Shown here one piece after another: positions 4,445-19,618 of a stretch of DNA of 64,000 nt. The DNA is taken from assembly GCA_015064485.1 (NCBI GenBank), contig SVSD01000002.1, forward strand, positions 49,709-113,708, read 5' to 3'. The DNA is from Oscillospiraceae bacterium. Lineage in GTDB: Bacteria > Bacillota > Clostridia > Oscillospirales > CAG-382. The number at the start of each line of letters is the position of its first letter. The first letter of the stretch is position 1. The notes below the pieces were generated by a model, which was not told the DNA's origin, searched no databases, and was given only the letters and a program-made list of their open reading frames with translations. A program made the position numbers and the translations under genes.

Positions 4445-5686
4445 TTAAGAGTTCAATCCCAATTCGTAGCGGATACTTCTTTTTTCCTCTTCGGTAAGAT
4501 CAAAGCTGTTTATAATTTTCAAAAGCTGTTCTTTGGAATATTTTGGCTCGTAATAATCTCCTGACTTGTGTTCGACAACGCTCTTTTGTGCTTCTCTGAC
4601 AAGTTCAAGGCAAGCTTTATATTCATCACCGTATTTTGCTTGGTTTTCAGAATTTGTATTGTCGGCATTTTTCTTATCCTGCATTACCGAATACTGGAAT
4701 TTTTCTCTTGCAAGAGCGTCATCTCTTTCGCTGTTTTTGACTTCCTGTTCAAATTCCTTTGTCCATTTTTCATAATCAAGATCATTTTGTTTTTGGCGCA
4801 TCTCAAGTTCTCTTTCGGTAACGCTTTTTTCGTACTCGTCATTTGATTTGCCCTGATAATAATCCGCCCACCATTTTTCATCCTCAACCGAATCTCTTTG
4901 CTTCTGGTACTGAGCATTTTTCTCATCAGCAAGAAGTGAATTATAGCGATAATACTCATCAGATGCCTGCATCATCATTTCCGAAGACAAGGTATTAAGA
5001 TCCTGCATAAGAGAGCTTCTTATATCGGCGATCATCTTATCTCTTTCCGCCTGAAGGCTCTTTAAAAGATCACGGTATTCATCTTCCATTCTCAGCTCTT
5101 CTGAGAGAACTCTTCCGCCGCCCTTCGAAACTCCTTCATTCAACAGCGCTTCGTCAAGATACTTGTTCTTTTTCTCATAAGCTTTTTTGACTTCAGCAAT
5201 CTGCTTTTCGTAATCTTCATTTACAGACTTAATATAGTCATTTGCCTGTTTCTGCAAAACACTGCCTCGCTGATTTATCGCCCTTACATAAGAATCAATG
5301 ATCGTCTGCTGAAGACTTTCCGAACTCCTTGAATAAGGATCTTTATAATAAGGAGTTTCGGATGTTATTTTTTTAGGTTCAGATATTGTAGAAACATTTT
5401 TACCGACACTTTCTGTCATATTCCCGAAAAGTCTTTGTGCATATCCGTCTTTTGACACATTTGACGAGTCAATTCCCATAGCCGCCGCTTTGCCGAGGTT
5501 GTAATTATAACTGACTGTATCTGCCCATTTCATCTGTTCGCTTACATCAAGACCGTTTGCGAGTCTTGCGCTTATGGCATCCTGTGTTCTTGCAATTTCT
5601 TCTTTATAAAGTTCTTCATTGCCGCCGGCAAGCATTTTAAGACGCTCATCCGCCGGAACGGTAGCATATTTATATTTTGTAGACAT
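4445..5686 (-). CDS. phage-derived coiled-coil structural protein (function unknown; possibly internal/ejection or tail-associated)
   Basis: 413 aa, charged heptad-like central region; last gene of the phage-like operon. Confidence 0.55.
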   Translation of the reverse strand: MSTKYKYATVPADERLKMLAGGNEELYKEEIARTQDAISARLANGLDVSEQMKWADTVSYNYNLGKAAAMGIDSSNVSKDGYAQRLFGNMTESVGKNVSTISEPKKITSETPYYKDPYSRSSESLQQTIIDSYVRAINQRGSVLQKQANDYIKSVNEDYEKQIAEVKKAYEKKNKYLDEALLNEGVSKGGGRVLSEELRMEDEYRDLLKSLQAERDKMIADIRSSLMQDLNTLSSEMMMQASDEYYRYNSLLADEKNAQYQKQRDSVEDEKWWADYYQGKSNDEYEKSVTERELEMRQKQNDLDYEKWTKEFEQEVKNSERDDALAREKFQYSVMQDKKNADNTNSENQAKYGDEYKACLELVREAQKSVVEHKSGDYYEPKYSKEQLLKIINSFDLTEEEKRSIRYELGLNS

Positions 5687-5704
5687 AAAATCGTTCCTTT
5701 CATT

Positions 5705-7549
5705 TTAATCGTAAAATTTCACTCTTTCCGCCTTTTGCCACAAAAAAACAAGGTTTTCAACACATATTCCGCCGCCATCCATTTCAAGTTTTACCGAGTA
5801 TCTGTTTGCACAGTATGAGGGGATCTTAACGGTAAGTTTTCCTTCGCTTTTGTCGGTTTTTACAGTTGTATTATAGAAAAGCTTCCCGTCTGCAAAAAAG
5901 GAAAGATTAAAGCTCCTTTCTCTCCCGCTTTTATTCTCGTAATCAAAAGAAAATTTCAAGAGTTTTTTTCTCAGATAGCTGTTGCCGAAATCATATTTCT
6001 TGGTTGTGAAATAAGAGATGATATTTTTTTCAGTTGTACTTCCATCCTCAGAAAAAACAGTATCGCAAAAATCCTCTGCGGAACATTCAAAAATTTCCGT
6101 TTTTTCTTTGCTTCCCACAAAATACAATTTTCCCGCAAGAGCAAACATATCGGAAAAATCGCCCGCTTCGCAAATTTTGAACCAGGGAAGCTTCTTTTGG
6201 GAGGTTCTGTATTCTGCGCCCGAATAAAAAGGTACTCTGCCATAATCCCACATATAGATCGATTTTCCGTTACAGATAAAATACTTTCTGTCAAAATCGC
6301 AGGAAAAGCATTTTCCCTCTTTCGCAAAAGGAACTCCTGTATCTCCTTTTAAATTTTGAGAAATCGGTAAAATATTAAGCTCATCAAAAATATCGGTTGA
6401 CTGCAAAATATATATTCCGTCGGTTTTGTCGCCGAAAACTATTGTGTTATCAAGTGCATTTACACTTCCGCTCATACTGCATCCCACACCTGTATTTATG
6501 GAATTTACAGTAAAAACCGGGCCGTTTTCTTCCGAAAACGAATATGACATCGAATAGATATGCTTGTCGGTAAAGAAGTACATCTTTTCATATCTTTTTT
6601 CAGCTCCGTTTACATTTTCGCTTCCGTCGCCCAAAGTTTCCTGAGTGTTGTCAGGGAAATACAAAGGATTTTTGAGTTCGCTTCTGAAATACATCGAAGG
6701 ATACTCGGGATTTCCCGTAATAAAGGCGCGGCTTCCGTCTTTTGTCGTACCACCGTAGCAAAACGCGATTTTTGAGCCGTAAATCTTTGAAAGATATTCA
6801 TTCATTGTCTCATTTGAAGCATCTATTGTATACTCCACTTCGATCGGTGATTTAAGCCCCGGGCCATCCTTGAAATAGAAAGCTACATGCATATTGTCTG
6901 AAGAATAGTCCTGCTGCATGGGTTTTAACCTTTGTCCATCTTTAATAATACAACACGGCTGAGAAGTATCGGCAGGATACGGCAAATCAAAGGATTGGGT
7001 TGTTTCGTAACCTGTACCCGATACCAAATTATAGTGACATCTTACACGCTTGGTAAGCATATTAAAAGGTTCAAATGTTTCGTAACTCGAAAGCCACTTG
7101 TCAGCATTCTGAATAATTATAGGATAATAAGGCTCTATTTCTTTACAGTTAAAATCCTTGTCTGTTTCAAAGATCTTTTTATCGCTTGAATAGAAATAGA
7201 CCTTAGCATTCATGCGCAAAAAAAAGCCTTCCTCTCCTACATTTTCACACATTGTATGGATGTTTTCGCCGTCAAAACGGTAAAGGGAAGTTCCTGCATG
7301 AAAAATTATATTACCGTAATATTCCTCGGGAAATTTTGATTTGTATTCTCCCTCGACTTTTGTTCCGACACAGCATAAAGCATCTCTTGTTTTTAAAATT
7401 CCGCCGTCAAAGCAGATATTTGACATTTCGGTGACGAAGCTGTCGTCACCGTTGTCATCAAAAGTATATCCTCCCGAAAGTTTTTCCACCTTGTAAAGAT
7501 ATTTGCTGACGGATGAAATACTTCCGGTACTTACAGAATTATATGCCAT
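5705..7549 (-). CDS. phage-derived large structural protein (possible tail/nozzle-type beta-rich protein)
   Basis: 614 aa, beta-rich, aromatic/Gly-rich repeats; sits downstream of the capsid genes; no motif recognised. Confidence 0.5.
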   Translation of the reverse strand: MAYNSVSTGSISSVSKYLYKVEKLSGGYTFDDNGDDSFVTEMSNICFDGGILKTRDALCCVGTKVEGEYKSKFPEEYYGNIIFHAGTSLYRFDGENIHTMCENVGEEGFFLRMNAKVYFYSSDKKIFETDKDFNCKEIEPYYPIIIQNADKWLSSYETFEPFNMLTKRVRCHYNLVSGTGYETTQSFDLPYPADTSQPCCIIKDGQRLKPMQQDYSSDNMHVAFYFKDGPGLKSPIEVEYTIDASNETMNEYLSKIYGSKIAFCYGGTTKDGSRAFITGNPEYPSMYFRSELKNPLYFPDNTQETLGDGSENVNGAEKRYEKMYFFTDKHIYSMSYSFSEENGPVFTVNSINTGVGCSMSGSVNALDNTIVFGDKTDGIYILQSTDIFDELNILPISQNLKGDTGVPFAKEGKCFSCDFDRKYFICNGKSIYMWDYGRVPFYSGAEYRTSQKKLPWFKICEAGDFSDMFALAGKLYFVGSKEKTEIFECSAEDFCDTVFSEDGSTTEKNIISYFTTKKYDFGNSYLRKKLLKFSFDYENKSGRERSFNLSFFADGKLFYNTTVKTDKSEGKLTVKIPSYCANRYSVKLEMDGGGICVENLVFLWQKAERVKFYD

Positions 7550-7564
7550 AACATCAACCTCCCG

Positions 7565-8536
7565 TCATCCGAAAAACCGTCTTATGCCTCTTCTTTTTCC
7601 GTAAGCCGCAGAATAAAAACTGTTTCTGTTGAACGGATTTGACGAAGGATAACAATTTGCAAGTATTTCACGGTATTTATAAGTAAGTCTTGTATAAAGC
7701 TCGCCGTCTTCCCTTTCGCAAAGCTCGGCGGCTGTGGCATATACAGCGGCAGAAAAGGCGGATGGGGAAAGTTCGATAACTGTATTATCATTTGAGTTTT
7801 CGGAAAGCTCCTTCGGGCAGAAGTAATATTCCACCAAATATGTTCCCGCATTTTTTTCGCTGCACGATAAAACCCCGTCGGAAAACTCAAAAATATCGCA
7901 TCTGCAAGGATGCGTTCTGTCGCCTGTGACCTTAAGTACCCTTGAAATTTCGATACATTCGGGAGATATTTCACAATAAAGCTTCTTTCCGTCGGGCAAA
8001 AACCTTTCATCAGGGCAATATCCCACACTTTTACTCGTATAGCTTTTTAGATTTTTCACATCAACAAAAGCTTTTTCTTTGCAGAAAAAAATAATATCCG
8101 AAGCATTTTCGGGAATTAATGCTTTAAAAATTTTGAGTTGACTGTAAGGAGAAATTATTTCTTTTTTCAAAACAGCATTCCCGTCGCCGTCACAAAATAC
8201 AATATTACATTTTCCGCAAAATTCGAAACTCAAAGCGCCCGAATCAGCGGGAAGAGAAACGAGCTTTTCCTCGCCGCTTATAAGCGAAAAATCGCAAACC
8301 TTCATCAGAACACCCGGAGTTTTAAAGACAACACTTTTCTTTTCAAGCCGTCTGTCGCAAGAAAGACTTACAAGGCGGATAGCGGCGTTTGCCGCCGAAA
8401 TAAACCTTTTTTCCATATCTCCGACAGCACCCGAAAATATTTCGTGTTCTTTTCCGTTGCAGCTGTATTCATCAAGCACCCTGAAAACATCGCTGCGAAA
8501 TCTTCCCAGAGTATAGCTTAAATTTCTGTCGTTCAT
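7565..8536 (-). CDS. phage-derived structural protein, function unknown
   Basis: 323 aa ORF, co-oriented and tightly spaced in the phage-like operon. Confidence 0.5.
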   Translation of the reverse strand: MNDRNLSYTLGRFRSDVFRVLDEYSCNGKEHEIFSGAVGDMEKRFISAANAAIRLVSLSCDRRLEKKSVVFKTPGVLMKVCDFSLISGEEKLVSLPADSGALSFEFCGKCNIVFCDGDGNAVLKKEIISPYSQLKIFKALIPENASDIIFFCKEKAFVDVKNLKSYTSKSVGYCPDERFLPDGKKLYCEISPECIEISRVLKVTGDRTHPCRCDIFEFSDGVLSCSEKNAGTYLVEYYFCPKELSENSNDNTVIELSPSAFSAAVYATAAELCEREDGELYTRLTYKYREILANCYPSSNPFNRNSFYSAAYGKRRGIRRFFG

Positions 8537-8573
8537 TCTTCAATTCCTTTCAGCTGTTTGTTTTGCAGGTGAT

Positions 8574-8604
8574 TTTTGTGGGATACCCGAGGTATCCCAC
8601 AAAA
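8574..8604 (-). other. perfect 14-bp stem hairpin inside the phage-like operon
   Basis: TTTTGTGGGATACC cga GGTATCCCACAAAA between the 89-aa and 323-aa genes; no adjacent U-tract on the transcribed strand. Confidence 0.6.
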
Positions 8605-8610
8605 TAAATT

Positions 8611-8880
8611 TCAGAATGTATCCGATACGATCAAATAAATTGTTTTTTCGGCATCTGTCGGGTTATAAACCGAAACCTCTCCCGAAAATTCAATTACTTC
8701 ACCTTCATATGTCTTATATCCTTTAGTCTTATCGGACTGGGACATACCGCAAACCACCACCCCTTCGGGGAAGGAAATTCTTGCGGAAAGTCCATCGTCA
8801 CCGGCAATAAATGACTTTTTCGGAGAAATCGTAATTTCTTCCGATTTTATGACCCTTGCGGGCTGATATGTAACAAACAT
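8611..8880 (-). CDS. phage-derived small protein downstream of capsid gene
   Basis: 89 aa ORF, 15 nt after the capsid-like gene. Confidence 0.5.
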   Translation of the reverse strand: MFVTYQPARVIKSEEITISPKKSFIAGDDGLSARISFPEGVVVCGMSQSDKTKGYKTYEGEVIEFSGEVSVYNPTDAEKTIYLIVSDTF

Positions 8881-8894
8881 AAAAATCCTCCTTA

Positions 8895-9812
8895 TTATGC
8901 GGGATCAGAGAAGATGATAGGTCTTGCATCGCCGAAACCGAAACCGAAATCGACATAACCGATATAGTCGGTAATCAAAGGATTTGCTTCGTGAGATACA
9001 AGAACTGTGGGTTCTGTGATGTAAACGAGCTTCAAAATTTCGGGGAGAAGCATAGAATCGGCAATAGCCCACTTCTTACCGGTAAGACCGATACCGCCTC
9101 CGCCGACTACCATATACTTCATACCGTAAACAGGGTTTGCGGCATTCATAGGTGCATCCGCATCGGGATTCTTTTCGGGGATAAGGCGGGAGTTGGGGCC
9201 GCAGATCTCCTTTGCCTTCGGTTCAAGCTCAGGGCTTACGAGAAGAAGGTCAAAATTACCTGCAAAAGGAAGTCCGTCGGGTGTTACAAAAGATGCGGCC
9301 TTTGTCTGCGCCGCTGTGATTGCCGCAACAGAAAGGTTGGAATGAATGATGTTTGAATATGTTTCATCAGATTCGGAATTTACTCTGTGCTTATCAGATG
9401 CCCAGGGAGTGCCGTCGGCGCCCACCTTTGTAAAAGCATCGCCGAAAAGACGGTAAAACTCGTTAAGTACGGTCATATATGCGGAATCCGCAAGGCGTGT
9501 ACCGACCTTTTCAGACTCCTTGCTCTGGTCGATCTTTGTCTTTTTATAGGACATAGTAACTTTTAAAGCGTGTTCCTTGGGGGTAATCGTTGTGATAAAG
9601 CCTCTCTTCTGATCAGCTTCGGCAATATTGGAACCATCATAAACGGGAATTTCGCCGTAACCGCCAACCCCTTCAAAACGGTAATCAACGCTGTCCTGAG
9701 TTATAACCTCGCAAAGCTGTGAGATAATGTCCATTCTGTCACCGTAGCGAAGATCAAAGCGCTTTTTAACAAGAGGGTAAAGATCCTGCGGCCAAGTATA
9801 AATATCGTTCAT
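8895..9812 (-). CDS. major capsid protein candidate (HK97-fold, gpT-like size)
   Basis: 305 aa; positioned after portal and scaffold; length and composition typical of major head proteins; assignment by synteny and memory only. Confidence 0.65.
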   Translation of the reverse strand: MNDIYTWPQDLYPLVKKRFDLRYGDRMDIISQLCEVITQDSVDYRFEGVGGYGEIPVYDGSNIAEADQKRGFITTITPKEHALKVTMSYKKTKIDQSKESEKVGTRLADSAYMTVLNEFYRLFGDAFTKVGADGTPWASDKHRVNSESDETYSNIIHSNLSVAAITAAQTKAASFVTPDGLPFAGNFDLLLVSPELEPKAKEICGPNSRLIPEKNPDADAPMNAANPVYGMKYMVVGGGGIGLTGKKWAIADSMLLPEILKLVYITEPTVLVSHEANPLITDYIGYVDFGFGFGDARPIIFSDPA

Positions 9813-9845
9813 ATTAAAAATTCTCCTTTGTTTTTATATTTTTTA

Positions 9846-10490
9846 TCAGTGAATAAAAGTTTCCTTGAAACAGATCTCAAAATAATCTCTTTCGGGAAGT
9901 GCGCTTACAACCTTGGCAATTGTACCGGGGTTGTTTGCAAAATCAAAATCATATCCGTTGTCGCAAAGTGCAAGGGCATCAAAACCGCAAGGCGGGATTA
10001 CTGCATAAACATCACCTACGCAAGGTGTTCCGCCTTCCTTTACGGTAAGAGTGTTGCCCGAGGAGGCGATGATTTCTCTTGCAAGGCCTGTGTGGTCGGT
10101 ATTTGTGCTTGTTTCATTCTTTGAAATAAGCTTAATATATCCGCCCTTCAAAGCATCGGCTCCGGCAGGGAGCTCGAGACCGGATACATTTATCTGTGTA
10201 GCCGTTCCCTTTTCGGAAACTTCAAAAACCTTGTTTGCGATTGCAATTATCATACCGGGAGAAACGATAACTCTGACTCTTCCGGAACCCGAACGGGGAT
10301 TTAATTCTTCCTTTTTCACTTTGTAGGATTCTGCAAGAATACCGAGAACTGTATCGGTATTTTCAGCCTTTTTGACTTTGCCGTTATTAAGAGTCACCGC
10401 TGTGCCCTTAAAAAGATCTTCTTCTGTTTCGATTTCGTATTCACGGATACAGGGAGATGCAGTCCCTGCGCTGTTCATAATATACTCCAT
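9846..10490 (-). CDS. phage head-associated protein (possible decoration or accessory head protein)
   Basis: 214 aa ORF between the scaffold-like and capsid-like genes. Confidence 0.45.
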   Translation of the reverse strand: MEYIMNSAGTASPCIREYEIETEEDLFKGTAVTLNNGKVKKAENTDTVLGILAESYKVKKEELNPRSGSGRVRVIVSPGMIIAIANKVFEVSEKGTATQINVSGLELPAGADALKGGYIKLISKNETSTNTDHTGLAREIIASSGNTLTVKEGGTPCVGDVYAVIPPCGFDALALCDNGYDFDFANNPGTIAKVVSALPERDYFEICFKETFIH

Positions 10491-10510: not shown

Positions 10511-11206
10511 TTACTTTCCGATTTTTTTCGACGGTATTTGTGATAAAAACTCGGAATACTGTTTGTAGGACATCCCGGCGGATGCCGCTATTCTCTTTTG
10601 ATTTTCTGTAAGTAAACTTGCGTAATCGGGCGTCCCCGCCGCATACCCCGAAAATCCCGTGGAAGCAAGTCCACGCTGTGCCGCTCTTGCGTGTGCCGCA
10701 GATTTTGCGTTTTCCATACCTGCAAGAAAAATACAGTAATCTTCAAACAGAGTTACAAGATCTCCTTCTCGCCTTTTGCAAAAGCTTCTGAACATCTTGT
10801 CCTCCATAACCTCTCCAAGCTTTTCCTCGCCGTACAAAGCAGCAAACTCAGAGAGCTCCCTTAACCGTTTTTCCTTTTCGGATATGTAATTTCCATCCGC
10901 TCCGCCTTCATTATCGGCTTTCTGTGCGTCGGGAACCGCATCAGTGCCGTTGTCTTCTCCGACGGGCGTCTTATCCGCTGAAAGCGATACTGCAAGTTCC
11001 GAAAGCTTTTGTGCAATTTTGGCATTCGAAAGATTTTTAAACCCCTCTTCTTTTCTTATCATCCCAAGTGCTTCACGCACTTTGATAAGCGATTCGTTGT
11101 TTTTTCTCTCTCTTGAAAGCCTTGTTTCTACAATGTTTTCGAGATCTTCTGCTGTATATAATTTTTCATCGGATAAATTCTTGTGTTCCCGGGATCTTGT
11201 TTCCAT
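10511..11206 (-). CDS. phage scaffolding protein candidate
   Basis: 231 aa, helical and charged; N-terminal LYTAEDLENIVETRLSRERKN resembles scaffold proteins of Firmicutes phages; overlaps the portal 3' end by 41 nt. Confidence 0.6.
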   Translation of the reverse strand: METRSREHKNLSDEKLYTAEDLENIVETRLSRERKNNESLIKVREALGMIRKEEGFKNLSNAKIAQKLSELAVSLSADKTPVGEDNGTDAVPDAQKADNEGGADGNYISEKEKRLRELSEFAALYGEEKLGEVMEDKMFRSFCKRREGDLVTLFEDYCIFLAGMENAKSAAHARAAQRGLASTGFSGYAAGTPDYASLLTENQKRIAASAGMSYKQYSEFLSQIPSKKIGK

Positions 11207-12953
11207 AAAGCTCCTCCTTCATATCTTTCATTATTTCGTCTTTATTGTTTTGAGAAAATTTCCTTTCGAGCGAATCACATATATCTCCTCTCATCGGAAG
11301 TCCGATAAGTTCCACATAGCTTTGTATAAGTCTGTAATTGTCCTCTGTAACAGGTACTTTTATAAGTTCCGAAAGTGCCTGAATTGTGAAAGCTTTGGAA
11401 TTTGCAACTCCGTCGCCCACATGAATCTTTACATCCACAACAGGAATATATGCGCTCTCCGAATTTTCGGGATATGTTGCAAAATCGTTGAATCTGTAAA
11501 CAGTTTCACCCGCGTCAACCGCTCCTATTGATATAATTCTTCCGTCGTCGTAATATTCAAGTGCCGTACGATCAATAAGTTCGTAAAGCCGCTTGAAACC
11601 TTCGGATTTTATTACCTTTTTCATCATCTGACGGTTTTTCGATCTTTCATTTATCAAAGCAATTCCCGATGCCGTTGTAACACGGGTAGGTTCAACCCCC
11701 TGATTAAGCTCGTAATTTCCCGTCGTATCTCTCATAACACTTCGCCAGTGTTCTGAATTGTTGTACTGATTTGTTTCCGAGTAAGCTCCGTTTCCAAGTC
11801 TTTGTATCTTGCCCATCATACCGGGGCGAAGCTTCCATACAGCACCGGGGGAATTATCCAGCGTTCCGTCATCTGAAAGTGCATTTTCCTCGGCAACTAT
11901 TATGTCATTCGAAGAAAAAGCGGAATTGAGCTGAGCATATGCAAGCTCTCTGTCTGCCGCATCAATAAGCGGAACAAGTGCTTCAAGTTCACTTTTACCC
12001 CATACGCTGTCTTCTTTGGGAATCTTTGAATATATGACAAACGGGAACATCGAGCAAACAGTATTTTTCCAGTATTTGGGTATATATCTTATTTCTCTGT
12101 CGCCGATAAGAATGGAAAGGGCGATATCCCCTGCTTTCCATTTGTAATTCACCTTGACTTTTTCACCGTTTATGTTGCAGACAATAGACTGCTGACCGTC
12201 CTGCGGCTGTCTGAACCACCATTCGGTTACGGTTACGGTATCGTCGGAAGCGTCAAAAGCTCCCGCTTCTTCTCCCGTATATTCATAATACCCGTACCCT
12301 GAGCGATAACCGTTTATATAGTCATCAATATCCGTACCCATTTCTTTAAGCTCGTTTTCAAAAACTCTTTTTGCCTTCTGCTTATGAAGTCTGTATACAT
12401 ATCCTATATATTCACATCCATCTACCGTAGAAGACGAAGGATCGGTAAATATCTGCTCCGGCTTCGGATTATCAACAATTACATCCCCGTAATTGTATCC
12501 GTCAAAAACAGACGAATCCCAGCAAACCTTGTATACCGCAGAACCCAAAATATTAAGTCTTCTTTCGTTTACAGCATTTTTATGCTGAAGGGCGTTTATA
12601 TCACAAATATATCTTGTGATATACTCTCTCTGCTTTGCCCTGTCAAAATCCTCATGAGCCCTTGGAGAAAACTCAAAATCGGGGACTGCAGTATCAACCT
12701 GGCTTTCCACATGAATAAATCCGTCGGTCGCCTGAGCAGGCTCCCAGGGGATGTCCTGTTCCTGAGTAAAAACAGCATTATGTACGCGTATCTCGTGATC
12801 GCCGTCATAATACGCTCTCATTTTTTTCCAATAAGTGCTTATAGGATTTTTGCTTTTGCCTGCGAGAGAAAGCAATGATTTGATGGTTTTTTCTCTTGCA
12901 TACGAGTCGGAATAATCATAAATTCCCAACAAAGAATCTTTTGATCTTTTCAT
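11166..12953 (-). CDS. phage portal protein
   Basis: 595 aa immediately downstream of large terminase; N-terminal YYDGDHEI motif reminiscent of SPP1-type portals. Confidence 0.75.
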   Translation of the reverse strand: MKRSKDSLLGIYDYSDSYAREKTIKSLLSLAGKSKNPISTYWKKMRAYYDGDHEIRVHNAVFTQEQDIPWEPAQATDGFIHVESQVDTAVPDFEFSPRAHEDFDRAKQREYITRYICDINALQHKNAVNERRLNILGSAVYKVCWDSSVFDGYNYGDVIVDNPKPEQIFTDPSSSTVDGCEYIGYVYRLHKQKAKRVFENELKEMGTDIDDYINGYRSGYGYYEYTGEEAGAFDASDDTVTVTEWWFRQPQDGQQSIVCNINGEKVKVNYKWKAGDIALSILIGDREIRYIPKYWKNTVCSMFPFVIYSKIPKEDSVWGKSELEALVPLIDAADRELAYAQLNSAFSSNDIIVAEENALSDDGTLDNSPGAVWKLRPGMMGKIQRLGNGAYSETNQYNNSEHWRSVMRDTTGNYELNQGVEPTRVTTASGIALINERSKNRQMMKKVIKSEGFKRLYELIDRTALEYYDDGRIISIGAVDAGETVYRFNDFATYPENSESAYIPVVDVKIHVGDGVANSKAFTIQALSELIKVPVTEDNYRLIQSYVELIGLPMRGDICDSLERKFSQNNKDEIMKDMKEELYGNKIPGTQEFIR

Positions 12954-12973: not shown

Positions 12974-14299
12974 TCATAATTTCCGCAGATGTGCGTTGCC
13001 TTTTATCTTTTGAGAAAGCCTTTTGGGTTTTTCTTTCTTTTCATTTTGCGAAGCAAAAAATGCTCTTGAAGATGCAAAATACCTCAAAGCATCGGGGGCG
13101 TGAGTTATTTCGTGAGGCTTTGTAGACGCATCTCCCGGTTTTTTCGGATCATGCAATAGCTGCGGAAGACATCTGATAAGATTTGAACAATTCCTGAAAA
13201 TCGTCATTTTGCTCTTTTTTCTGCCGTCCTCATCTATATAAGGCTTGAGCCATTCTTTAAGACAAAGAAAACTCTGTACTCTTTCGGGAGATATCTTTGT
13301 AAGATAGACCCCGTTTTCGCAAAAAAGCTCATATATGCTTTTCCCCGAATCCTTTTGTCTGCTCCATAAATCGCTCGGTGCGATAAACTGGCAAACACCC
13401 GAAGACTTTTCTTTTATTTTTTTTGCCGCCTCGCTTACAATAAGGTCTTTTTCATAAACCTCATCATAAACATGTGCATGACCGTCGGGAGAAAGAGCCA
13501 CAAAAACCGCTGCAAGCATATCAAGTCCGTAGTCAATAGCACAGTATCTTGACCATTCCTTCGGGATCTCATGCTCGTCGCAGGTATGTACCGACATATC
13601 AAATTCAGGGAAAAACTGCCCCTGAAAAGCATCCCATTTTCCGTAAAGCCAGGCGTCACGAAGGGAAACAGGTAAGCTTTTAAGTCTTTCGATATAATCC
13701 GGATCCTTTGAAAGCAATGCTTTATTGTCGTAAACAACAGCAGGAATAAATCTGTAGTCCTTCGGGTTTTCGCCTTCCCTGTAATCTCTGTCGATAAAAA
13801 GCCGTTTTACCCAACCGTGTCCCACTCCTCCGGGGTTGCAGGTAATATACATTCGTTTCGGAAAGTCGTTGGCGCCGCGAAGACAGCCCTTAAAGGTCTG
13901 AAACTGATACTCTGTAAGCTGGGTAGCCTCATCAAGGGCGATTATATCAAATTCCTGTCCCTGATACCTGTCCACATCTCCTTCGCTGTCGCAATATCCC
14001 ATTTTGATATGAGAACCGTTTTTAAATTCAAAGGTCTTTCTTGTGTCGGTATATGTTGCGATCTCCGCAAGCTCGGCACACATAGGCCGTATATGATTTT
14101 CTCTCAGCTCCTGATAGCTTTTTCTTACAATAAGAACCGAAAGTCCCGGATATCTTAAACACATAAGTATCATCTTCCGCCTTAAAGCCCAGCTTTTCCC
14201 TCCGCCTCTTGCTCCGCCGTATGCCACATATTTTTCGTCAGCCGAAAAAAAGAGCATCTGCTTTTCCTGCGGATATCCTTTTAAAAAAAGTTTCTTCAA
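12974..14299 (-). CDS. phage terminase large subunit
   Basis: 441 aa; Walker A GGARGGGKS; Walker B IIALDEAT; C-terminal nuclease-like region. Confidence 0.85.
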   Translation of the reverse strand: MKKLFLKGYPQEKQMLFFSADEKYVAYGGARGGGKSWALRRKMILMCLRYPGLSVLIVRKSYQELRENHIRPMCAELAEIATYTDTRKTFEFKNGSHIKMGYCDSEGDVDRYQGQEFDIIALDEATQLTEYQFQTFKGCLRGANDFPKRMYITCNPGGVGHGWVKRLFIDRDYREGENPKDYRFIPAVVYDNKALLSKDPDYIERLKSLPVSLRDAWLYGKWDAFQGQFFPEFDMSVHTCDEHEIPKEWSRYCAIDYGLDMLAAVFVALSPDGHAHVYDEVYEKDLIVSEAAKKIKEKSSGVCQFIAPSDLWSRQKDSGKSIYELFCENGVYLTKISPERVQSFLCLKEWLKPYIDEDGRKKSKMTIFRNCSNLIRCLPQLLHDPKKPGDASTKPHEITHAPDALRYFASSRAFFASQNEKKEKPKRLSQKIKGNAHLRKL

Positions 14300-14301
14300 A
14301 T

Positions 14302-14697
14302 TTATTCACCAAGCCTTTTTGCATCCTCGGAAAGTTCAAGCGAAAAACCTTCGATGTCCTCTTGCTTTGTCTGCCAGCCGAAATGTTCCTTAAGAGAGTT
14401 AATCGAAGCTGTAGCCGATAATCTGCCGGCAAGAGAATTTTCTTCGATATAAGCTTCGATCCTTCTTTTTGCACCCGAAATTATACGCCTTAATGAACGG
14501 GAGCTGTTTTCCAGCTCCGAAAGCTCTTTTGCACTCATATCAAGGTAATACAAAAGGCCTGTCAGCGTATAGGGCTTTTTGGTTTTCTTATCTTTGTCAA
14601 GCTCATTGTTTTCTCCGTCGCACATAGCAAAGTATCTGTTTATCCTTTTTTCAAGCTCTTGTTTTCCTGTTTTGCCCTTATAAATATTCTGTTTCAA
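14302..14697 (-). CDS. phage terminase small subunit candidate (start uncertain, TTG proposed)
   Basis: Directly upstream of TerL (2-nt gap). The long track ORF overlaps the upstream gene; TTG at 14697 is preceded by AAGGGGAAG; helix-rich basic protein. Confidence 0.5.
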   Translation of the reverse strand: MKQNIYKGKTGKQELEKRINRYFAMCDGENNELDKDKKTKKPYTLTGLLYYLDMSAKELSELENSSRSLRRIISGAKRRIEAYIEENSLAGRLSATASINSLKEHFGWQTKQEDIEGFSLELSEDAKRLGE

Positions 14698-14710
14698 AAT
14701 TCTTCCCCTT

Positions 14711-14962
14711 TTAGTCGTTTCCGAGCATATGACACAGCTCGTAAAAATTATCCTCGGCATAATCCTGCCAACAGCTGCGGTGTATTGTATCGCCTGTCGA
14801 CATAACAAACGCCTTTTCCTCGCCCTTTACGATTTCGTAACCGCAGTACATGCATTTCTCACAAACACATTCGGGGTCGTCGTCTTTATCTTTTGATGAA
14901 AAAATTCCTTCCTCATCAAGTATCTCTTTTTCAAATGCAATAAAATCTATGCAACTATTCAT
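14711..14962 (-). CDS. small Cys-rich (zinc-ribbon-like) protein, first gene of the packaging operon
   Basis: 83 aa from ATG 14962 with RBS AAGGAGGGAGAGG; CVCEKCMYCG plus HRSC motifs. Confidence 0.5.
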   Translation of the reverse strand: MNSCIDFIAFEKEILDEEGIFSSKDKDDDPECVCEKCMYCGYEIVKGEEKAFVMSTGDTIHRSCWQDYAEDNFYELCHMLGND

Positions 14963-14978
14963 TTTCCTCTCCCTCCTT

Positions 14979-14990
14979 AAACATTTGTTC
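14979..14990. promoter_or_regulatory. Cheo-box-like palindrome AAACATTTGTTC (one mismatch to GAAC-N4-GTTC)
   Basis: Read directly; lies in the 5' leader just upstream of the RBS of the first packaging-operon gene. Confidence 0.4.
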
Positions 14991-15045
14991 TTAGAATTGT
15001 ACAAAAAATAAAAGAACATCAAAGACAAATTCGAATTTGTTTTTC

Positions 15046-15057
15046 AAACCTCTGTTC
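15046..15057. promoter_or_regulatory. Cheo-box-like palindrome AAACCTCTGTTC
   Basis: Read directly; lies just downstream of the predicted transcription start. Confidence 0.4.
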
Positions 15058-15070
15058 TTGTTATGCTGTG

Positions 15071-15099
15071 ATTATACCACAAAAATTGGAAAAAGTCAA
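15071..15099 (-). promoter_or_regulatory. strong sigma-A promoter of the packaging/head operon
   Basis: Minus strand TTGACT (15094-15099), 17 nt, TGgTATAAT extended -10 (15071-15076). Confidence 0.7.
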
Positions 15100-15108
15100 G
15101 AATTATTT

Positions 15109-15120
15109 GAACCTTTGTTC
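15109..15120. promoter_or_regulatory. perfect GAAC-N4-GTTC palindrome (LexA/Cheo-box-like operator)
   Basis: GAACCTTTGTTC, 9 bp upstream of the -35. Confidence 0.5.
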
Positions 15121-15206
15121 TAATTTCGGCTATTTTCACAATCTTTTTAGCATTTTTGTTCGATTTTTTGAATATTATTTGTTTATTATACCTATTGACA
15201 ATTAAA

Positions 15207-15218
15207 GAACTTGCGTTC
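15207..15218. promoter_or_regulatory. perfect GAAC-N4-GTTC palindrome (LexA/Cheo-box-like operator)
   Basis: GAACTTGCGTTC, between the nnr terminator and the packaging promoter. Confidence 0.5.
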
Positions 15219-15220
15219 TA

Positions 15221-15282: not shown

Positions 15283-16785
15283 TCAGAACCCTTTTCTGAG
15301 TTCCTTTACCGCCAAATGTATGGATTTTACAGTATCCGAGGAAGTCATACAGATATCCCCGACACTTTCTTGCGCAAATTCTCCCGCAAGTCCCGAAATA
15401 TATGCGGCGCAGGAAACCGACAACTCATCCGGCTCACAATAGCCCATAAGTCCTGTCAGAATTCCCGACAAAACATCTCCGCTTCCCGCAGTCGCCATCC
15501 CTGCACATCCCGTGTCGGTGATAAAAACTTCTTTTTCGCCGGCAATGACAGTCCCCGCACCTTTCAAAAGAAGAATTACTTTTCCGTTTTTGTCTTTGAG
15601 GTACTCCTTTGCGCTTCCGACAGGATCGGAAAGTATTTTTTCCGTTTCATATCCCGATATCCTTGAAAACTCGAGAGGATGCGGTGTAAGTATTATTTTT
15701 TTGCAGCTTGTACGGGATAAAATATTTTTATCAAGTTTAGATAAGGCATTTATGCCGTCTGCATCAATAATCAGAACACCTTCGTAATTTTCTATAATAT
15801 ACGAAAGTATCTTCCCGTTATCTTTACCGTTTCCCCACCCCATTCCGCAGGACACCGCGGCAGTCCCCTTTAAAAGCAAATTGATTTTCTCTTTGTGAAA
15901 AATCATACTGCCGTCTTCATCGGGCATAACAAAAAGCGTACTTTCAAGAAGATACGGTGCAACATACGAAGAAACGGACTCCGCCACACACAGTTTTGTT
16001 ACGCCGCATCCGCTTTTCAGTGCGGAAAGAGCCATATTCGAAAGCTTTACAGCTCCCGAGTATTCGCGGCATCCGCCGATAATTGCAGTATATCCGAAAT
16101 TACCCTTGTGGCAATTATTTTCCCTTTCCCTTAAAATGTCCTTAAAATCAGCTTTTTCGGGTACAGAGACCTTTTCGCCCATAAGCGAAATTCCGATATC
16201 AATGCATTTTTTACTTTTCATTACATCTTTGGAGCGTCCGATAAAATGTCCGAGCTTATAAAACTGAACAGCAACTGTAAGATCGGATATGACCGAAATA
16301 TCTCCCAGTCCGCTGTCGCCCGAAATCCCCGAATTTATATCGGCACTTACAATATATGCGCCTGATTTGTTCATTCTTTCAATGCATTTTTCGACATTTC
16401 CGGAAACTTTACCCCGAAATCCCGTTCCGAAAATACAATCGGCAAGAGTATCAAATTTTGAAAATTCTGTGCCGTCAGAAAAGATTTCATACTCTATTCC
16501 CTTTTCAACGCACTTTTCAAAATAGTATCTTCCGTCTTCGGAAAATTTGTCCTCTACAAGAACTATTCTGCAGTTTCCTCCGTTTTCGTGTATTGCAAGC
16601 GCAATAACAAACCCGTCGCCGCCGTTATTTCCCGTTCCGCAAACGACGCAGGTATTACCCCAATTGCCGTATGCTTTAAAAATACCTCTGCCTGCACGGA
16701 GCATAAGCTCTTTTGAATCCGTTCCGCACTTTATAGTATTTTCGTCGGATATGCGCATAACTTTATTTGAAACTGCAACTTTCAT
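15283..16785 (-). CDS. nnr: bifunctional NAD(P)H-hydrate repair enzyme (epimerase + ADP-dependent dehydratase)
   Basis: 500 aa; YjeF-N motif GTGNNGGDG; C-terminal carbohydrate-kinase motif GSGDVLSG. Confidence 0.9.
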   Translation of the reverse strand: MKVAVSNKVMRISDENTIKCGTDSKELMLRAGRGIFKAYGNWGNTCVVCGTGNNGGDGFVIALAIHENGGNCRIVLVEDKFSEDGRYYFEKCVEKGIEYEIFSDGTEFSKFDTLADCIFGTGFRGKVSGNVEKCIERMNKSGAYIVSADINSGISGDSGLGDISVISDLTVAVQFYKLGHFIGRSKDVMKSKKCIDIGISLMGEKVSVPEKADFKDILRERENNCHKGNFGYTAIIGGCREYSGAVKLSNMALSALKSGCGVTKLCVAESVSSYVAPYLLESTLFVMPDEDGSMIFHKEKINLLLKGTAAVSCGMGWGNGKDNGKILSYIIENYEGVLIIDADGINALSKLDKNILSRTSCKKIILTPHPLEFSRISGYETEKILSDPVGSAKEYLKDKNGKVILLLKGAGTVIAGEKEVFITDTGCAGMATAGSGDVLSGILTGLMGYCEPDELSVSCAAYISGLAGEFAQESVGDICMTSSDTVKSIHLAVKELRKGF

Positions 16786-16853: not shown

Positions 16854-17015
16854 TTAAAAAACCTTGTCTTCGTCAGAGGTAAGCGCTTCATACTCAGCCT
16901 GGGAAATTTCATAATAGCAGCTTTCATCCTCGCCTTGCGCAAGATATATTTTTCTTCCGTAAGTTTTGCCGTTTGTAAGAATACAGCCTTTTGATGCTTC
17001 AATTACTTTTCTCAT
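16854..17015 (-). CDS. small phage-associated protein (53 aa, below the ORF-track cutoff)
   Basis: My own translation: MRKVIEASKGCILTNGKTYGRKIYLAQGEDESCYYEISQAEYEALTSDEDKVF; RBS AGGAGAAAGAG; 12 nt after the upstream fibre gene. Confidence 0.4.
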   Translation of the reverse strand: MRKVIEASKGCILTNGKTYGRKIYLAQGEDESCYYEISQAEYEALTSDEDKVF

Positions 17016-17027
17016 ACTCTTTCTCCT

Positions 17028-17621
17028 TTACACAAGCGATATTGTCCAGTTTTGTTTTGACGCAACAAGAGCATTCCATTCATCTTCGGAAAAAGCATTA
17101 TTTACAGCCGTTTCGGAAAGAGTAAGGGTAAGACCGCTTGAAGAAGCAGAAAGTGCATTGACAATCGATTCTATCGAAGCTCTTGACAGCTTTGTACTCC
17201 AATGAATATCAAAGCTCTTCCCTATTGTCCCGCTCATTTCAAGATTAACAAGGTTTGTCACTCCGGTAAATGTATTTGTGAATGATGTGTTTTCATTAAC
17301 AGTAAATTTGCGTATAGTATGACAATTAGACATATTGTAAAAGCAATTATTTGCATTTTTTGCGGCAATAATTTCAACTTTTGTGTCTGTTATGAGTTCA
17401 TTTGCGTAGAATATTGCTTGTGAGCCTGTTGTGGTATCGGTGCTCTTAATAACATATGGGGGATTGTAATTGTTATCATCAAATCTGTTATAAGCAAACG
17501 CATAATAATAGTTAGCCGCACGACCGCCGTTTTGTATACCTTCCCAAACAGAAAGTCTTCCTGCCTCATACACATCGTCAATGTCCTGTTTTAACTGCAA
17601 GGATTTTTCAGCAATATTCAT
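17028..17621 (-). CDS. phage tail fibre-associated protein with leucine-rich-repeat-like core
   Basis: 197 aa; start overlaps the fibre gene stop (ATGA-type coupling); N-x-x-F/L repeats (NCFYNMSNC...FTNTFTGVTNLVNL). Confidence 0.55.
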   Translation of the reverse strand: MNIAEKSLQLKQDIDDVYEAGRLSVWEGIQNGGRAANYYYAFAYNRFDDNNYNPPYVIKSTDTTTGSQAIFYANELITDTKVEIIAAKNANNCFYNMSNCHTIRKFTVNENTSFTNTFTGVTNLVNLEMSGTIGKSFDIHWSTKLSRASIESIVNALSASSSGLTLTLSETAVNNAFSEDEWNALVASKQNWTISLV

Positions 17622-19618
17622 TATGCTTCACCCCCTGAAATTTTGGCTTGTGCGTAGCTGTGAAGCTCATCAAGAACGGAATCGATGTCGCCGACAAGCT
17701 CATCCACATATGTTTGGGTTACAAAATCTGCATCGTTTTCAAACTCGGACAGTTTCGTTTTTTCGTAGATGACATTTGTGCAGTTATTAAGTGTGATATT
17801 TTTATCAGTCGAATTCAAAATAACGGTGTCGCAACTACTCAAGTCAAAATTATTTGTGTTAGAAAAATCACATCCGATTATGTTTTTAGATTTGTATAAA
17901 TAACCTCTTTCCGAATGTAGTTTGTTATTATAAAATCCATTGAAATTAGCACAACTGCACATTTCAAGGGATATCGGATTGAAATTTTTTAAACGAGTAT
18001 TCGATCCAACAGCTTTTAAATTTGTTGATGTTAATTTCATCAAAAAGCCGTTACCGTCAATACTTAAAACATTAGTCGGCACATTAAGTGATATGGGATT
18101 AGCACTGTTACCCGATTCCATTTGTACATCACACTTTAACAGAATGTTTCTTGCTCCGTTCCAATCCTCTGTATCAATCATCGCATCCCATTCTTCTTGT
18201 GAATGTATGATTGTGTCATAAACAAGTTCCGTTTTTGTAACATATCCCGCATCATTCTCAAGCTCCGATACCTTTTTCGGCAAAGCCTCATCGGTAATAA
18301 AACCCTTATCATTTTCAAATTCCGAAAGCTTTTCGGGAATTGCCGATTCGGTAATATAACCCGTATCATTTTCAAATTCGGACAGCTTTGTTTTTTCGTA
18401 AATGATATTTGAGCAATCGACAATTTCCCATCCGTCCAAGCTATCGAAAAGGTCTTTAGAACCTGTATCAAGAATGATCGTATCGCAGTTTTCTAACTTT
18501 ATGATTTTGGTATCTCTTTCATCAAATTTAGAAAAACTACAACCTATAATGTTTTTACATTCTTGAATCATTGTATCGTTCGCTTGTAAAACACAGTTAT
18601 AAATGCCGTTTATTTTAGACAATGTATCACGAACAACACTTAAACTGTTGCAATTACGCAAAGAAGTATTTTTGCCTTTGGCGATTATTGTTACAAATGC
18701 AAAACCGAGCGAATAGCCGTTACCGTCAATAGTTACAACATTTTCGGGTATTTCTATCGTTCCGCCTATGCCGTATCTATTTGTAGTGATATCGCACCTT
18801 AACAGAATGTTTCTCGCACCATTCCAATCTTCCGTCGCAATCATTGCATCCCATTCTTCTTGCGATGTAATTACCCTATCATAAAACAAGTTTTCTTTTG
18901 TAATAAACCCCTTGTCATTATCAAGCTGTGAAAGCTTTTTCGGTAAAACCTCATCCGTAATATACCCTGTATCGTTTTCAAACTCCGATAGCTTTCCGGG
19001 AATATCCGATACGGTCATATATCCCGTATCATTTTCGATTTCCGATAGCTTTTTAGGAAGCGCGGATGCAGTTATATAGCCTGTATCGTTCTGAAATCCG
19101 GAAAGCTTTACGGGGATTTCAGATGCGGTAATATATCCTGTATCGTTTTCGAACTCCGAAAGTTTTTCGGGGATCGAAGACTCGGTTACATACCCGGCAT
19201 CATTTTCAAAATCAGAAAGCTTTTCCGGGACAGAATCTACAGCCTCCTGTACTTTTGAAACAAGCTGTGAATAAAGATCGGGAGTAGGCGGTATCGCAGT
19301 TTCGCCGTCAGAGGCAAAACCCGATTTCTGCATCGTAAATTCAAAAGGCAAAGTAGTTATTCGCAAAGCTTCTCCCGGCATTTGCCCGAATACCGAAAGT
19401 TTCACTTTTCCGACGGAAATTTCCGAGGGAACAGTGCAATATCCGTCCTCCACAAGGGCGTTGTAGGTTTTTTCTTCCTGGGTGAACTGTGCAGTTTTTA
19501 CAAGAGCCTGCCATTCTTCGCTGAATGAAAAATAAACTCTTAAATAATCAACACTGTCGGATGCGGTCTTAGTATATTCACCCGATATACTCTGACCGTT
19601 AATAACGATTTTTATCAT
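17621..19618 (-). CDS. phage tail fibre / receptor-binding protein with 19-aa KLSEFENDTGYIT repeats and a duplicated module
   Basis: 665 aa; 10 copies of P-x-KLSEFENDTGYIT-x4; two paralogous ~155-165 aa modules beginning YD..I.SQEEWDAMI.TEDWNGARNILL. Confidence 0.75.
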   Translation of the reverse strand: MIKIVINGQSISGEYTKTASDSVDYLRVYFSFSEEWQALVKTAQFTQEEKTYNALVEDGYCTVPSEISVGKVKLSVFGQMPGEALRITTLPFEFTMQKSGFASDGETAIPPTPDLYSQLVSKVQEAVDSVPEKLSDFENDAGYVTESSIPEKLSEFENDTGYITASEIPVKLSGFQNDTGYITASALPKKLSEIENDTGYMTVSDIPGKLSEFENDTGYITDEVLPKKLSQLDNDKGFITKENLFYDRVITSQEEWDAMIATEDWNGARNILLRCDITTNRYGIGGTIEIPENVVTIDGNGYSLGFAFVTIIAKGKNTSLRNCNSLSVVRDTLSKINGIYNCVLQANDTMIQECKNIIGCSFSKFDERDTKIIKLENCDTIILDTGSKDLFDSLDGWEIVDCSNIIYEKTKLSEFENDTGYITESAIPEKLSEFENDKGFITDEALPKKVSELENDAGYVTKTELVYDTIIHSQEEWDAMIDTEDWNGARNILLKCDVQMESGNSANPISLNVPTNVLSIDGNGFLMKLTSTNLKAVGSNTRLKNFNPISLEMCSCANFNGFYNNKLHSERGYLYKSKNIIGCDFSNTNNFDLSSCDTVILNSTDKNITLNNCTNVIYEKTKLSEFENDADFVTQTYVDELVGDIDSVLDELHSYAQAKISGGEA
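18224..18394 (-). repeat. three tandem 57-bp coding repeats (19-aa fibre repeat)
   Basis: Residues 409-465 of the fibre ORF. Confidence 0.8.
18887..19228 (-). repeat. six tandem 57-bp coding repeats (19-aa fibre repeat)
   Basis: Residues 131-244 of the fibre ORF; repeat register read from the translation. Confidence 0.8.

Follow-up and report, generated by a model that had tools for sequence, protein, structure and literature searches.

The closest described counterpart of the locus examined here, a 10.5-kb operon of phage-derived genes in a 64,000-nt stretch of an Oscillospiraceae bacterium (contig SVSD01000002.1; the whole stretch is called the window below), is FpGTA, the gene transfer agent (GTA) of Faecalibacterium. 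FpGTA is encoded by a ten-gene operon of 10.5 kb and forms particles of about 40 nm that appear to be tail-less or short-tailed and hold approximately 8.5–9 kb of host DNA (PMC12946183). Its genes specify the small and large terminase subunits (TerS and TerL), a portal, a Prp-like protein, a capsid protein of the N4-gp56 family, a nozzle, so annotated because it matches P22 gp10, and lastly a 'TolA-like' protein; a second operon of 5.5 kb encodes fibres and lysis genes (PMC12946183). GTA-like packaging has also been reported for Gemmiger, Ruminococcus callidus, Onthomonas and Christensenellaceae; the Gemmiger/Subdoligranulum reference genomes examined held no FpGTA homologues, and no loci were reported for the others (PMC12946183). 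A 2026 preprint describes candidate clusters of 12.7–14 kb in Butyricicoccaceae and Coprocola (10.64898/2026.07.08.737213).

The operon in the window (4445–14962, minus strand) most probably stems from a short-tailed phage of podovirus type that became domesticated by its host. It encodes TerS, TerL, a P22-type portal, a Mu-gpT-type capsid protein of the HK97 fold, a second head protein and, as judged by its predicted structure, a tail nozzle. An earlier note on this stretch, made from the letters and a list of open reading frames (ORFs), had described a single 15-kb minus-strand locus (4445–19618) with neither integrase, repressor, replication, holin or endolysin ORFs nor flanking repeats. 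Scans of the span with Pfam, PHROGs and NCBIfam likewise gave zero matches to integrase, repressor, replication, holin and endolysin families, and a search for att-like direct repeats flanking the operon found none; having no integrase, repressor, replication or lysis genes, the operon cannot by itself constitute a virus. All ORFs that the note listed are present and intact on the minus strand. The claim of a single locus did not hold, since the span contains nnr (15283–16785, 500 amino acids (aa), YjeF_N and Carb_kinase domains), a host housekeeping gene for NAD(P)H-hydrate epimerase/dehydratase that the note had missed and that parts the operon from a separate fibre unit at 16854–19618. The main new observation of this analysis is that clusters of LexA operators lie on the promoter of the operon. 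That the operon is a functional, host-controlled particle locus is considered very probable; that it is a true GTA is put at a little short of an even chance.

The genes of the operon are as follows.

14711..14962, minus: zinc protein, 83 aa, C2HC zinc-binding, operon gene 1; start corrected by reading of the DNA to ATG 14962, behind AAGGAGG
14302..14697, minus: TerS of P22 gp3 type, 131 aa; start corrected in the same way to TTG 14697; Pfam GP3_package 6e-16, phrog_606
12974..14299, minus: TerL; Terminase_3 and Terminase_6N; phrog_979 9e-48
11166..12953, minus: portal of P22/SU10 type; PF16510 3e-14, PF23899, phrog_156 6e-25
10511..11206, minus: scaffold-like protein, 231 aa, so called from position and charged helical composition
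9846..10490, minus: head-associated protein, 214 aa, weak matches only
8895..9812, minus: major capsid protein, 305 aa, Mu gpT-like, Pfam Phage_capsid_4
8611..8880, minus: conserved protein, 89 aa, syntenic in relatives; ratio of nonsynonymous to synonymous substitution rates (dN/dS) 0.195
7565..8536, minus: 323-aa protein, just before the nozzle gene
5705..7549, minus: predicted tail nozzle of podovirus type, 614 aa, beta-propeller (AlphaFold and Foldseek)
4445..5686, minus: 413-aa protein with a conserved N-terminus of about 55 residues, a charged, coiled-coil-looking region and a variable C-terminus

Both this operon and that of FpGTA belong to Clostridia of the Oscillospiraceae/Ruminococcaceae group, as taken from record names and the FpGTA paper. 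Each is about 10.5 kb long and has 10–11 genes in the order TerS, TerL, portal, head genes, capsid, small ORFs, nozzle and a repetitive or coiled-coil protein last; the nozzle of each matches P22 gp10 (8eap), neither system has integrase or replication genes, and both encode their fibres apart from the operon. The best match of the fibre in the Protein Data Bank (PDB), although weak, is the 80alpha baseplate entry 6v8i, which was used for an FpGTA II fibre as well. The two systems differ in the capsid, which is of the N4-gp56 family in FpGTA (RCH50849.1 as named by NCBI) and of the Mu-gpT/Phage_capsid_4 type here, and in the genes between portal and capsid, a Prp-like gene there (RCH50850.1) and two other genes here. 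The capsid protein had no NCBIfam match at E ≤ 0.1 and thus none to N4-gp56, and neither the 231-aa nor the 214-aa ORF matched Prp in Pfam or NCBIfam. The zinc-protein gene at the head of the operon is extra here, the fibre unit lacks the holin and endolysin, and control through LexA boxes has not been described for FpGTA. Of the two systems, FpGTA is the one for which particles and packaged DNA were shown. Faecalibacterium proteins were absent from the named capsid relatives inspected. Because the capsid is not of the N4-gp56 type, no Prp-like gene is present and a zinc-protein gene is added, the locus is filed as one that works like FpGTA and not as a demonstrated member of its family.

LexA operator clusters at the operon promoter

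The LexA operator is GAACN4GTTC in Bacillus and GAACnnnnGTTT/C at the clostridial lexA, recA, ruvC and uvrB genes (PMC4234289). Searching with the Firmicutes pattern GAAC-N4-GTT[CT] gave four matches in the 240 bp upstream of the operon versus five in all of the 63.7 kb that make up the rest of the window. Across 12 loci, 33 boxes with the consensus AAAGAACAAATGTTCTAA were counted in 3.1 kb of upstream sequence (260 nt each), which is 10.6 per kb; over the ∼253 kb outside these regions the density was 0.07 per kb, giving an enrichment of about 150-fold. Every operon examined had one to four boxes ahead of it, and relatives agree in the number of boxes and in the class of position that they occupy. 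Nearly all intergenic boxes in the fetched loci, including those of the distant loci L008, L014/L015 and L017, precede either the operon or the fibre gene.

The 3′ end of nnr is a hairpin with a T-run, and the operon promoter comes next. Its elements are:

14963..15218, minus: operon regulatory region with four LexA (Cheo) boxes, sigma-A-type promoter, leader hairpin and the ribosome-binding site AAGGAGG
15207–15218: LexA box 1, GAACGCAAGTTC, just past the nnr terminator
15109–15120: LexA box 2, GAACAAAGGTTC, 9 nt upstream of the −35
15099–15094: −35 element TTGACT, followed by a 17-nt spacer
15076–15071: −10 element within TGgTATAAT, completing a strong promoter
15046–15057: LexA box 3, GAACAGAGGTTT, 14 nt downstream of the −10
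14979–14990: LexA box 4, GAACAAATGTTT, touching the ribosome-binding site

Three of the four LexA operators thus bracket the −35, span the region where transcription should start and reach the ribosome-binding site, with the fourth lying about 100 nt further upstream. This placement predicts that the operon is silent in undamaged cells. Between the window and its close relative L025 the control region is 95% identical, while dS of the flanking genes is 0.2–0.47. From the motif matches we infer that host LexA directly represses the operon, which would make it inducible by the SOS response.

In GIL01, a tectivirus of Bacillus thuringiensis, host LexA acts as the phage repressor. GIL01 and the present operon are both phage-derived elements without a CI-type repressor that are silenced by host LexA at their promoters (here as predicted); GIL01, which belongs to an unrelated virus family, differs in being an autonomous prophage in linear-plasmid form and in needing a small co-repressor, gp7. 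LexA operators on a structural promoter recall GIL01 more than they do the alphaproteobacterial GTAs.

The leader contains a hairpin with a U-run, placed after the promoter and ahead of the last LexA box, which is present in most relatives. In the window (∼15020–15060, minus strand) it is AT-rich and weak, and is no more stable than shuffled sequence (z = 0.04); clearer versions are found at L005 7857–7883, L006 ∼7828–7868, L011 ∼5565–5603, L023 ∼4830–4860 and L001 ∼7810–7836. The clearer versions in relatives suggest transcription attenuation or anti-termination.

Conservation, selection and inheritance

Relative loci fetched for comparison with the window are designated by L-numbers. Searched with the portal, species-representative genomes of Clostridia gave 16 loci; an exact-match look-up of the window's portal sequence returned no record. 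In L002–L010 and, more divergently, L011–L015, all 11 genes recur in unchanged order and between the same ends. At least 14 other Clostridia genomes carry the operon among housekeeping genes, as do further copies on contigs of which up to ∼380 kb was read (685 kb listed); its neighbours elsewhere include aspartate kinase, RNase HII, V-ATPase, ProRS and AddA. Integrase, replication or lysis genes belonging to the element were not identified in the annotated flanks of relatives (10 kb per side). A lone Xer-type recombinase occurs in L020 and is absent from the sister loci L021 and L022. Across species, identity is 87–90% for the capsid protein, 66–78% for the portal and 27–47% for the tail proteins.

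A close relative, L025, has an identical gene order of fibre, fibre partner, 53-aa ORF, nnr and operon, and its contig stops within the 323-aa gene, so that dN/dS was obtained for the operon genes before that point. Their values were 0.007–0.195 with dS of 0.20–0.47, the capsid gene (0.007) and the zinc-protein gene (0.015) being among them; nnr gave a dS of 0.45 and a dN/dS of 0.10. In a second, independent pair, L005 and L010, all 11 genes could be compared and had dN/dS of 0.025–0.32 and dS of 0.26–0.82, and the adjacent host flippase-like gene had values of 0.19 and 0.52, respectively. The comparison of synteny and dN/dS across relatives that the earlier note had proposed as a check thus found the same gene order and purifying selection on every operon gene tested.

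Divergence of host and operon proteins was further compared between the window and GCA_045532035.1 (L003 plus L026). Amino-acid identity was 73% for ddl, 76% for the Mur ligase, 71% for the hydrolase and 56% for nnr among host proteins, and 69% for TerL, 73% for the portal and 90% for the capsid protein in the operon. In five genomes the flippase-like gene directly adjoins the operon, and in the window the two are 17 kb apart; identity ranks of operon proteins and flippase correlated with Spearman coefficients of 0.73–0.95 (five taxa, non-independent pairs). The operon appears to have resided long in these genomes and to have descended vertically with the chromosome, which is the favoured view.

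In IMG/VR, close relatives amount to a few short fragments. A scan for distant relatives, seeded with the portal alignment, found a few contigs of 19–46 kb with the same head-gene order, at 31–35% identity for the portal and 40–45% for the capsid, which are probably free phages of the ancestral type. Two phage-like contigs, L039 (UViG_3300001525_000756, 29 kb) and L041 (UViG_3300026311_000030, 46 kb), have the order TerL, portal, scaffold, 214-aa-like protein and capsid, with a nozzle too in L039, and identities to the operon of 31–33% for the portal and 40–45% for the capsid. Both are candidate members of the free-living phage group that gave rise to the element. For L039, annotation with Pfam was uninformative.

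Two further features were seen in relatives. In L020, of a human-gut lineage, ORF-free inserts of 0.8–1.1 kb that contain repeated blocks lie at 5668–6498, between TerL and portal, and at 11221–12350, between the 90-aa and 320-aa genes; the operon genes are intact, and the same inserts, which look like interspersed repeat elements, are present in L021 and L022. Near the operon, L003 (9793–11208), L005 (1208–5564, three genes) and L006 (19634–21687, two genes) encode paralogous proteins of 472–480 aa that are absent from the window. These have no Pfam match and are beta-helix-like by eye; they could serve as alternative depolymerases or receptor-binding proteins, or else be host enzymes with no link to the operon.

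Packaging, head and tail genes

The assignments of TerL, the portal and the candidate small terminase made in the earlier note are borne out by Pfam and PHROGs, and the Walker motifs named there, GGARGGGKS and ALDEAT, lie at residues 28 and 121 of TerL. Beyond what the other libraries gave, the NCBIfam scan yielded one sub-threshold match, to a PBSX-type TerL. The zinc protein, possibly a regulator or packaging accessory, keeps the motif CxxCG...TGDxIHxxC(W/Y)xDY in 13 of 13 aligned sequences.

The note's 305-aa capsid candidate is likewise confirmed: PF25209 (Phage_capsid_4) is annotated on its homologues, more remote relatives bear the name Mu gpT-like, and a search with the family profile recovered capsid proteins of solved structure labelled 'Mu GpT domain' with an E value of 2e-21. 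It is a small family: clustering at 50% leaves 115 representatives in a set of 1.84 billion proteins. A local Pfam scan of the capsid protein gave no family at E ≤ 0.01, whereas precomputed annotation gives PF25209 for homologues of up to 98% identity; the discrepancy is probably a difference in library version.

The 231-aa protein between portal and 214-aa genes had zero family matches, and its family profile gave marginal matches only to PDB sequences. Its gene keeps its position in all relatives, and from this position and the charged helical composition of the product a scaffold role is suggested. The 214-aa protein matched weakly phrog_766 (head decoration, 0.003), Peptidase_G2 (0.0015) and phi29 gp12 (0.03); a gene of its type also lies between the scaffold and capsid genes of related phage contigs, and from this position it is possibly a decoration protein. 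The 89-aa protein is a candidate head-completion or connector protein.

The earlier note had found no recognisable tail tube, tape measure or sheath among the last four ORFs. This stands for tube, sheath and tape-measure genes, and has to be amended for the 614-aa ORF, which structure prediction identifies as a podovirus tail nozzle. The AlphaFold model (pLDDT 86.7, pTM 0.84) was compared with the PDB by Foldseek, and its best 26 matches were all podovirus tail or portal-tail complexes (E of 4e-18 to 2e-10), including T7 gp12, P22 gp10 (8eap_D), SU10, GP4 and cyanophage A4. Among cultured phages, the podophage Page of Bacillus megaterium has the nearest nozzle, its gp15 (25% identity). Searching PDB sequences with profiles of the 614-, 323- and 413-aa families returned nothing, and structure prediction alone resolved the 614-aa protein. 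With this nozzle the particle is expected to be podovirus-like, which accounts for there being no tube, sheath or tape-measure gene.

The 323-aa protein, from the position of its gene before that of the nozzle, is a candidate head-to-tail adaptor; nine of 11 members of its family match phrog_13046, a PHROG of unknown function. The gene for the 413-aa protein, a candidate tail needle or fibre, comes last in the operon of every relative. The 74 bp that separate the 89-aa from the 323-aa gene, at the boundary of head and tail genes, contain an inverted repeat (8574–8604) with perfect arms of 14 bp and a loop of 3 nt; it has no clear T-run and may be a processing or attenuation site.

The fibre unit

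Upstream of nnr lies a second transcription unit with the following features.

19693..19749, minus: fibre promoter, consisting of GAAAATTTGTTC, TTGACT, a 17-nt spacer, TGgTATAAT, a 4-nt gap and AAACAAATGTTT
17621..19618, minus: fibre-like protein, 665 aa; phrog_25979 5e-28
17028..17621, minus: fibre partner, 197 aa, following the fibre gene in L025, L026 and L028; dN/dS 0.125
16854..17015, minus: 53-aa ORF of doubtful significance, present in L025 only; dN/dS 0.82 over just 53 codons

The 665-aa protein consists of a phage-type N-terminal beta-sandwich domain, which is also found in Ruminococcus and Butyrivibrio phages, KLSEFENDxGYIT repeats and two repeated domains of about 230 aa. Its structural model is poor overall (pLDDT 64) with a well-predicted N-terminal domain, for which weak structural matches to 80alpha and NF5 baseplate chains were obtained (E of 0.01–0.09); the likeness of the model to baseplate fibres is a hint only. 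The protein is probably the receptor-binding fibre of the particle. It evolves fast, with 64–72% identity to its L025 counterpart and one domain lost, versus 92% for nnr. A fibre homologue in L027, in a Bacteroidota context, was discarded as it shares the repeat motif only. The 197-aa partner, called LRR-like in the earlier note, had zero family matches, which leaves that description without support.

The boxes GAAAATTTGTTC and AAACAAATGTTT at the fibre promoter are near-consensus LexA boxes, and the fibre promoters of L026 and L028 have a perfect box, GAACTTATGTTC, just after the −10. The fibre and operon promoters share their layout, including the common strings CTTGACTTTTT and TGTGGTATAAT. 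This shared layout and the LexA-like boxes suggest that the fibre is co-regulated with the operon, hence that the two loci form one system. In L025, L026 and L028, fibre and partner keep their place beside nnr with or without the operon as a neighbour, and are therefore a separate resident locus and transcription unit, tied to nnr and not to the operon.

Conservation extends to the 5′ leader of the fibre gene (window 19619–19700, minus strand; L025 607–688; L026 1590–1684; L028 5703–5800). Its sequence, GCGGTCGGGA...GCGGAAAG..GGCGGAA, is kept where the fibre protein is only 34–64% identical, and a small stem with one compensatory change is predicted. The leader had no Rfam match, and covariation analysis would need more than the four sequences; the leader could act as a protein-binding site or as a cis-regulatory RNA not yet described.

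Proposed mechanism and alternative explanations

The explanation to which we commit, and which on balance we hold to be probable, is that the operon makes host-domesticated, short-tailed particles that are derepressed in the SOS response, package cellular DNA, receive a fibre encoded separately and are released by lysis genes elsewhere in the genome. Upon DNA damage, active RecA would promote self-cleavage of LexA and thereby open the promoter, with the terminator-like hairpin of the leader perhaps acting as a second checkpoint. Procapsids would then assemble and, by analogy with FpGTA, RcGTA and PBSX, be filled with cellular DNA by the terminase through headful packaging, after which the short tail would be added to the filled head. 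Adsorption would be provided by the separately transcribed, fast-evolving fibre (17621–19618) with its LexA-like boxes, and release by lysis genes located elsewhere. The host-controlled, GTA-like alternative put forward in the earlier note is thus favoured by the housekeeping context, the host-like divergence, the LexA operator clusters and the precedent of FpGTA (PMC12946183).

The alphaproteobacterial agents RcGTA and CcGTA are also chromosomal, apparently vertically inherited clusters of head, packaging and tail genes under purifying selection, without integrase or replication genes, with accessory loci elsewhere and with control by host regulators. Homology of RcGTA to the present locus was not detectable beyond the common terminase, portal and HK97 folds, and RcGTA is siphovirus-like with tube and tape-measure genes, whereas the locus here is podovirus-like. 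CtrA/GafA and quorum sensing govern RcGTA, on which LexA has an indirect influence, in contrast to the predicted LexA operators placed here directly on the structural promoter. CcGTA is reportedly under anti-termination control, which the terminator-like element of the leader recalls. The portal family, gp3-type TerS and nozzle fold are common to the operon and to the podoviruses P22, T7, SU10 and Page; these are autonomous viruses of 39–45 kb with replication and lysis modules, and the detectable similarity of Page to the operon is limited to the nozzle.

Much of the evidence would also fit an SOS-induced defective particle of the PBSX type, which would contain DNA but deliver none productively and act by killing competitors, by altruistic lysis or by release of DNA or public goods, since its structural and regulatory features are shared with the explanation above. 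PBSX of Bacillus subtilis is, like the present element, of Firmicutes and SOS-inducible, and its particles carry host DNA without propagation. It is about 28 kb long, myovirus-like and a killer particle, with its own Xre repressor and lysis genes; the element here is of 10.5 kb, short-tailed and without a repressor of its own. The rapid evolution of the fibre fits a targeting protein, but killing by PBSX needs a contractile tail, whereas here the predicted tail is of the nozzle type and sheath, tube and tape-measure genes are missing. The dN/dS of 0.007–0.03 for terminase, portal and capsid suggests moreover that packaging itself is selected. A particle of this kind, which the authors of FpGTA raise for their own system (PMC12946183), is regarded as unlikely here, if still worth serious attention. 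Less probable again is a capsid-forming satellite or minimal mobile element that packages itself and spreads with a helper phage or by homologous recombination. Its small size, own TerS, TerL, portal and capsid, different sites in different genera and occurrence on a few short IMG/VR contigs would suit such an element, and similar clusters have been likened to capsid-forming satellites (10.64898/2026.07.08.737213). Against it stand the lack of integrase, AlpA-type regulator, primase or replicase and att repeats, both here and at the borders in the relatives examined, as well as dS and protein divergence equal to those of adjacent host genes and LexA boxes of the host, in place of a helper-sensing repressor, at the promoter. 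Satellites such as the capsid-forming phage-inducible chromosomal islands (PICIs) are small islands that share the TerS, TerL, portal and capsid genes and possess an integrase, regulators, replication genes and att sites; they lack tail genes and borrow tails. Here the former were not found, and a tail nozzle of its own is predicted.

It is very improbable that the operon is the structural module of a split or otherwise unusual complete prophage with its replication, lysogeny and lysis modules elsewhere. Distant relatives of the head module do occur on IMG/VR contigs of 29–46 kb that resemble full phage genomes, and release of particles would require lysis genes somewhere; but housekeeping genes fill the rest of the 64-kb window and, in many genomes, the 10 kb to either side of the operon, and a virus could not package dispersed loci, an arrangement that is the defining organisation of a GTA. 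The decaying prophage remnant that the earlier note had offered as its other alternative, with virion genes kept by chance, has the absence of life-cycle genes and the small size in its favour. It is scarcely credible, given 11 of 11 genes intact with the same bounds in many species, dN/dS of 0.007–0.195 (against L025) and 0.025–0.32 (L005 against L010), a conserved non-coding control region and a regulatory motif conserved across the whole family; the intact operon, the dN/dS values and the host-like divergence together exclude decay.

Several points weigh against SOS-derepressed, vertically inherited transfer particles. The boxes are assigned to LexA by motif match, and lexA and recA lie outside both the window and the fetched loci. 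The operon lies at different chromosomal sites in different genera, and the nnr–ddl junction is found without it in L026 and L028, in one of which two genomes the operon is on another contig; as the site is not universal, rearrangement or old relocation or mobility must be assumed. A holin or endolysin was not found within the 64-kb window. Mu-gpT-type capsids normally build large capsids in Mu-like phages, so that a head able to carry the whole 11-kb locus is possible. The adaptor, needle, scaffold and decoration roles are guesses from position.

Long-read virome studies of 2026 found GTA-like packaging of host DNA to be prominent in gut Clostridia, with the genes known only for Faecalibacterium. 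The operon may tentatively be seen as a second podovirus-type GTA lineage, with a Mu-gpT capsid, widespread and apparently inherited vertically in gut and rumen Clostridia and wired to LexA, whose domestication was possibly independent of that of FpGTA; we rate this as somewhat below an even chance. If true, it could be one source of the short-fragment packaging in Oscillospiraceae, Christensenellaceae and Gemmiger, where no clusters had been found. A second conserved cluster with a predicted on-switch would provide a marker for producers in metagenomes, a testable link from antibiotic or inflammatory DNA damage to horizontal gene flow in the gut, and a clean case of a phage module without its own repressor that is wired into a host regulon.

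Genomic surroundings

As the earlier note had stated, both flanks are ordinary chromosome, with genes for a lipoprotein, an alpha/beta hydrolase, a Mur ligase and ddl on the left and a GyrB/ParE-type topoisomerase subunit on the right. Base composition of the operon is the same as that of its surroundings, with no anomaly. Directly 3′ of the operon are:

4108..4371, minus: small acidic lipoprotein, 87 aa, with lipobox LASC and C-terminus SPDSANITK
3996–3971: terminator-like site after the lipoprotein gene

The lipoprotein corresponds to a 111-aa ORF, with the start now placed at 4371. It had zero family matches, but homologues stand in the same place in L005 (∼18740–18981), L006 (∼19100–19400) and L010 (∼18730–18960), with the C-terminus SPDSANI.. 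kept. The protein could be a 12th gene of the system, acting for example in exclusion or envelope interaction. A role as holin was considered and ruled out, as there is a single N-terminal signal/lipobox segment only.

The remainder of the 64-kb window is ordinary chromosome, including, in addition to ddl, the Mur ligase and the GyrB/ParE-type subunit, genes for an ECF transporter, a ClpB-like protein, the shikimate pathway, argininosuccinate synthase and proteins with SLH domains. Its RNA genes are a class A RNase P RNA (31489–31839, plus strand), a tRNA-Glu(CTC) (35617–35691, plus strand) and a T-box leader (61371–61620, minus strand), ordinary chromosomal RNA genes that confirm the cellular context. 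Two ORFs of about 1,000 aa, at 39472–42549 on the plus strand and 39505–42546 on the minus strand, overlap almost wholly. The plus-strand ORF is probably a shadow ORF, since only its minus-strand partner matches an SLH domain. A further SLH protein is encoded at 35953–39177.

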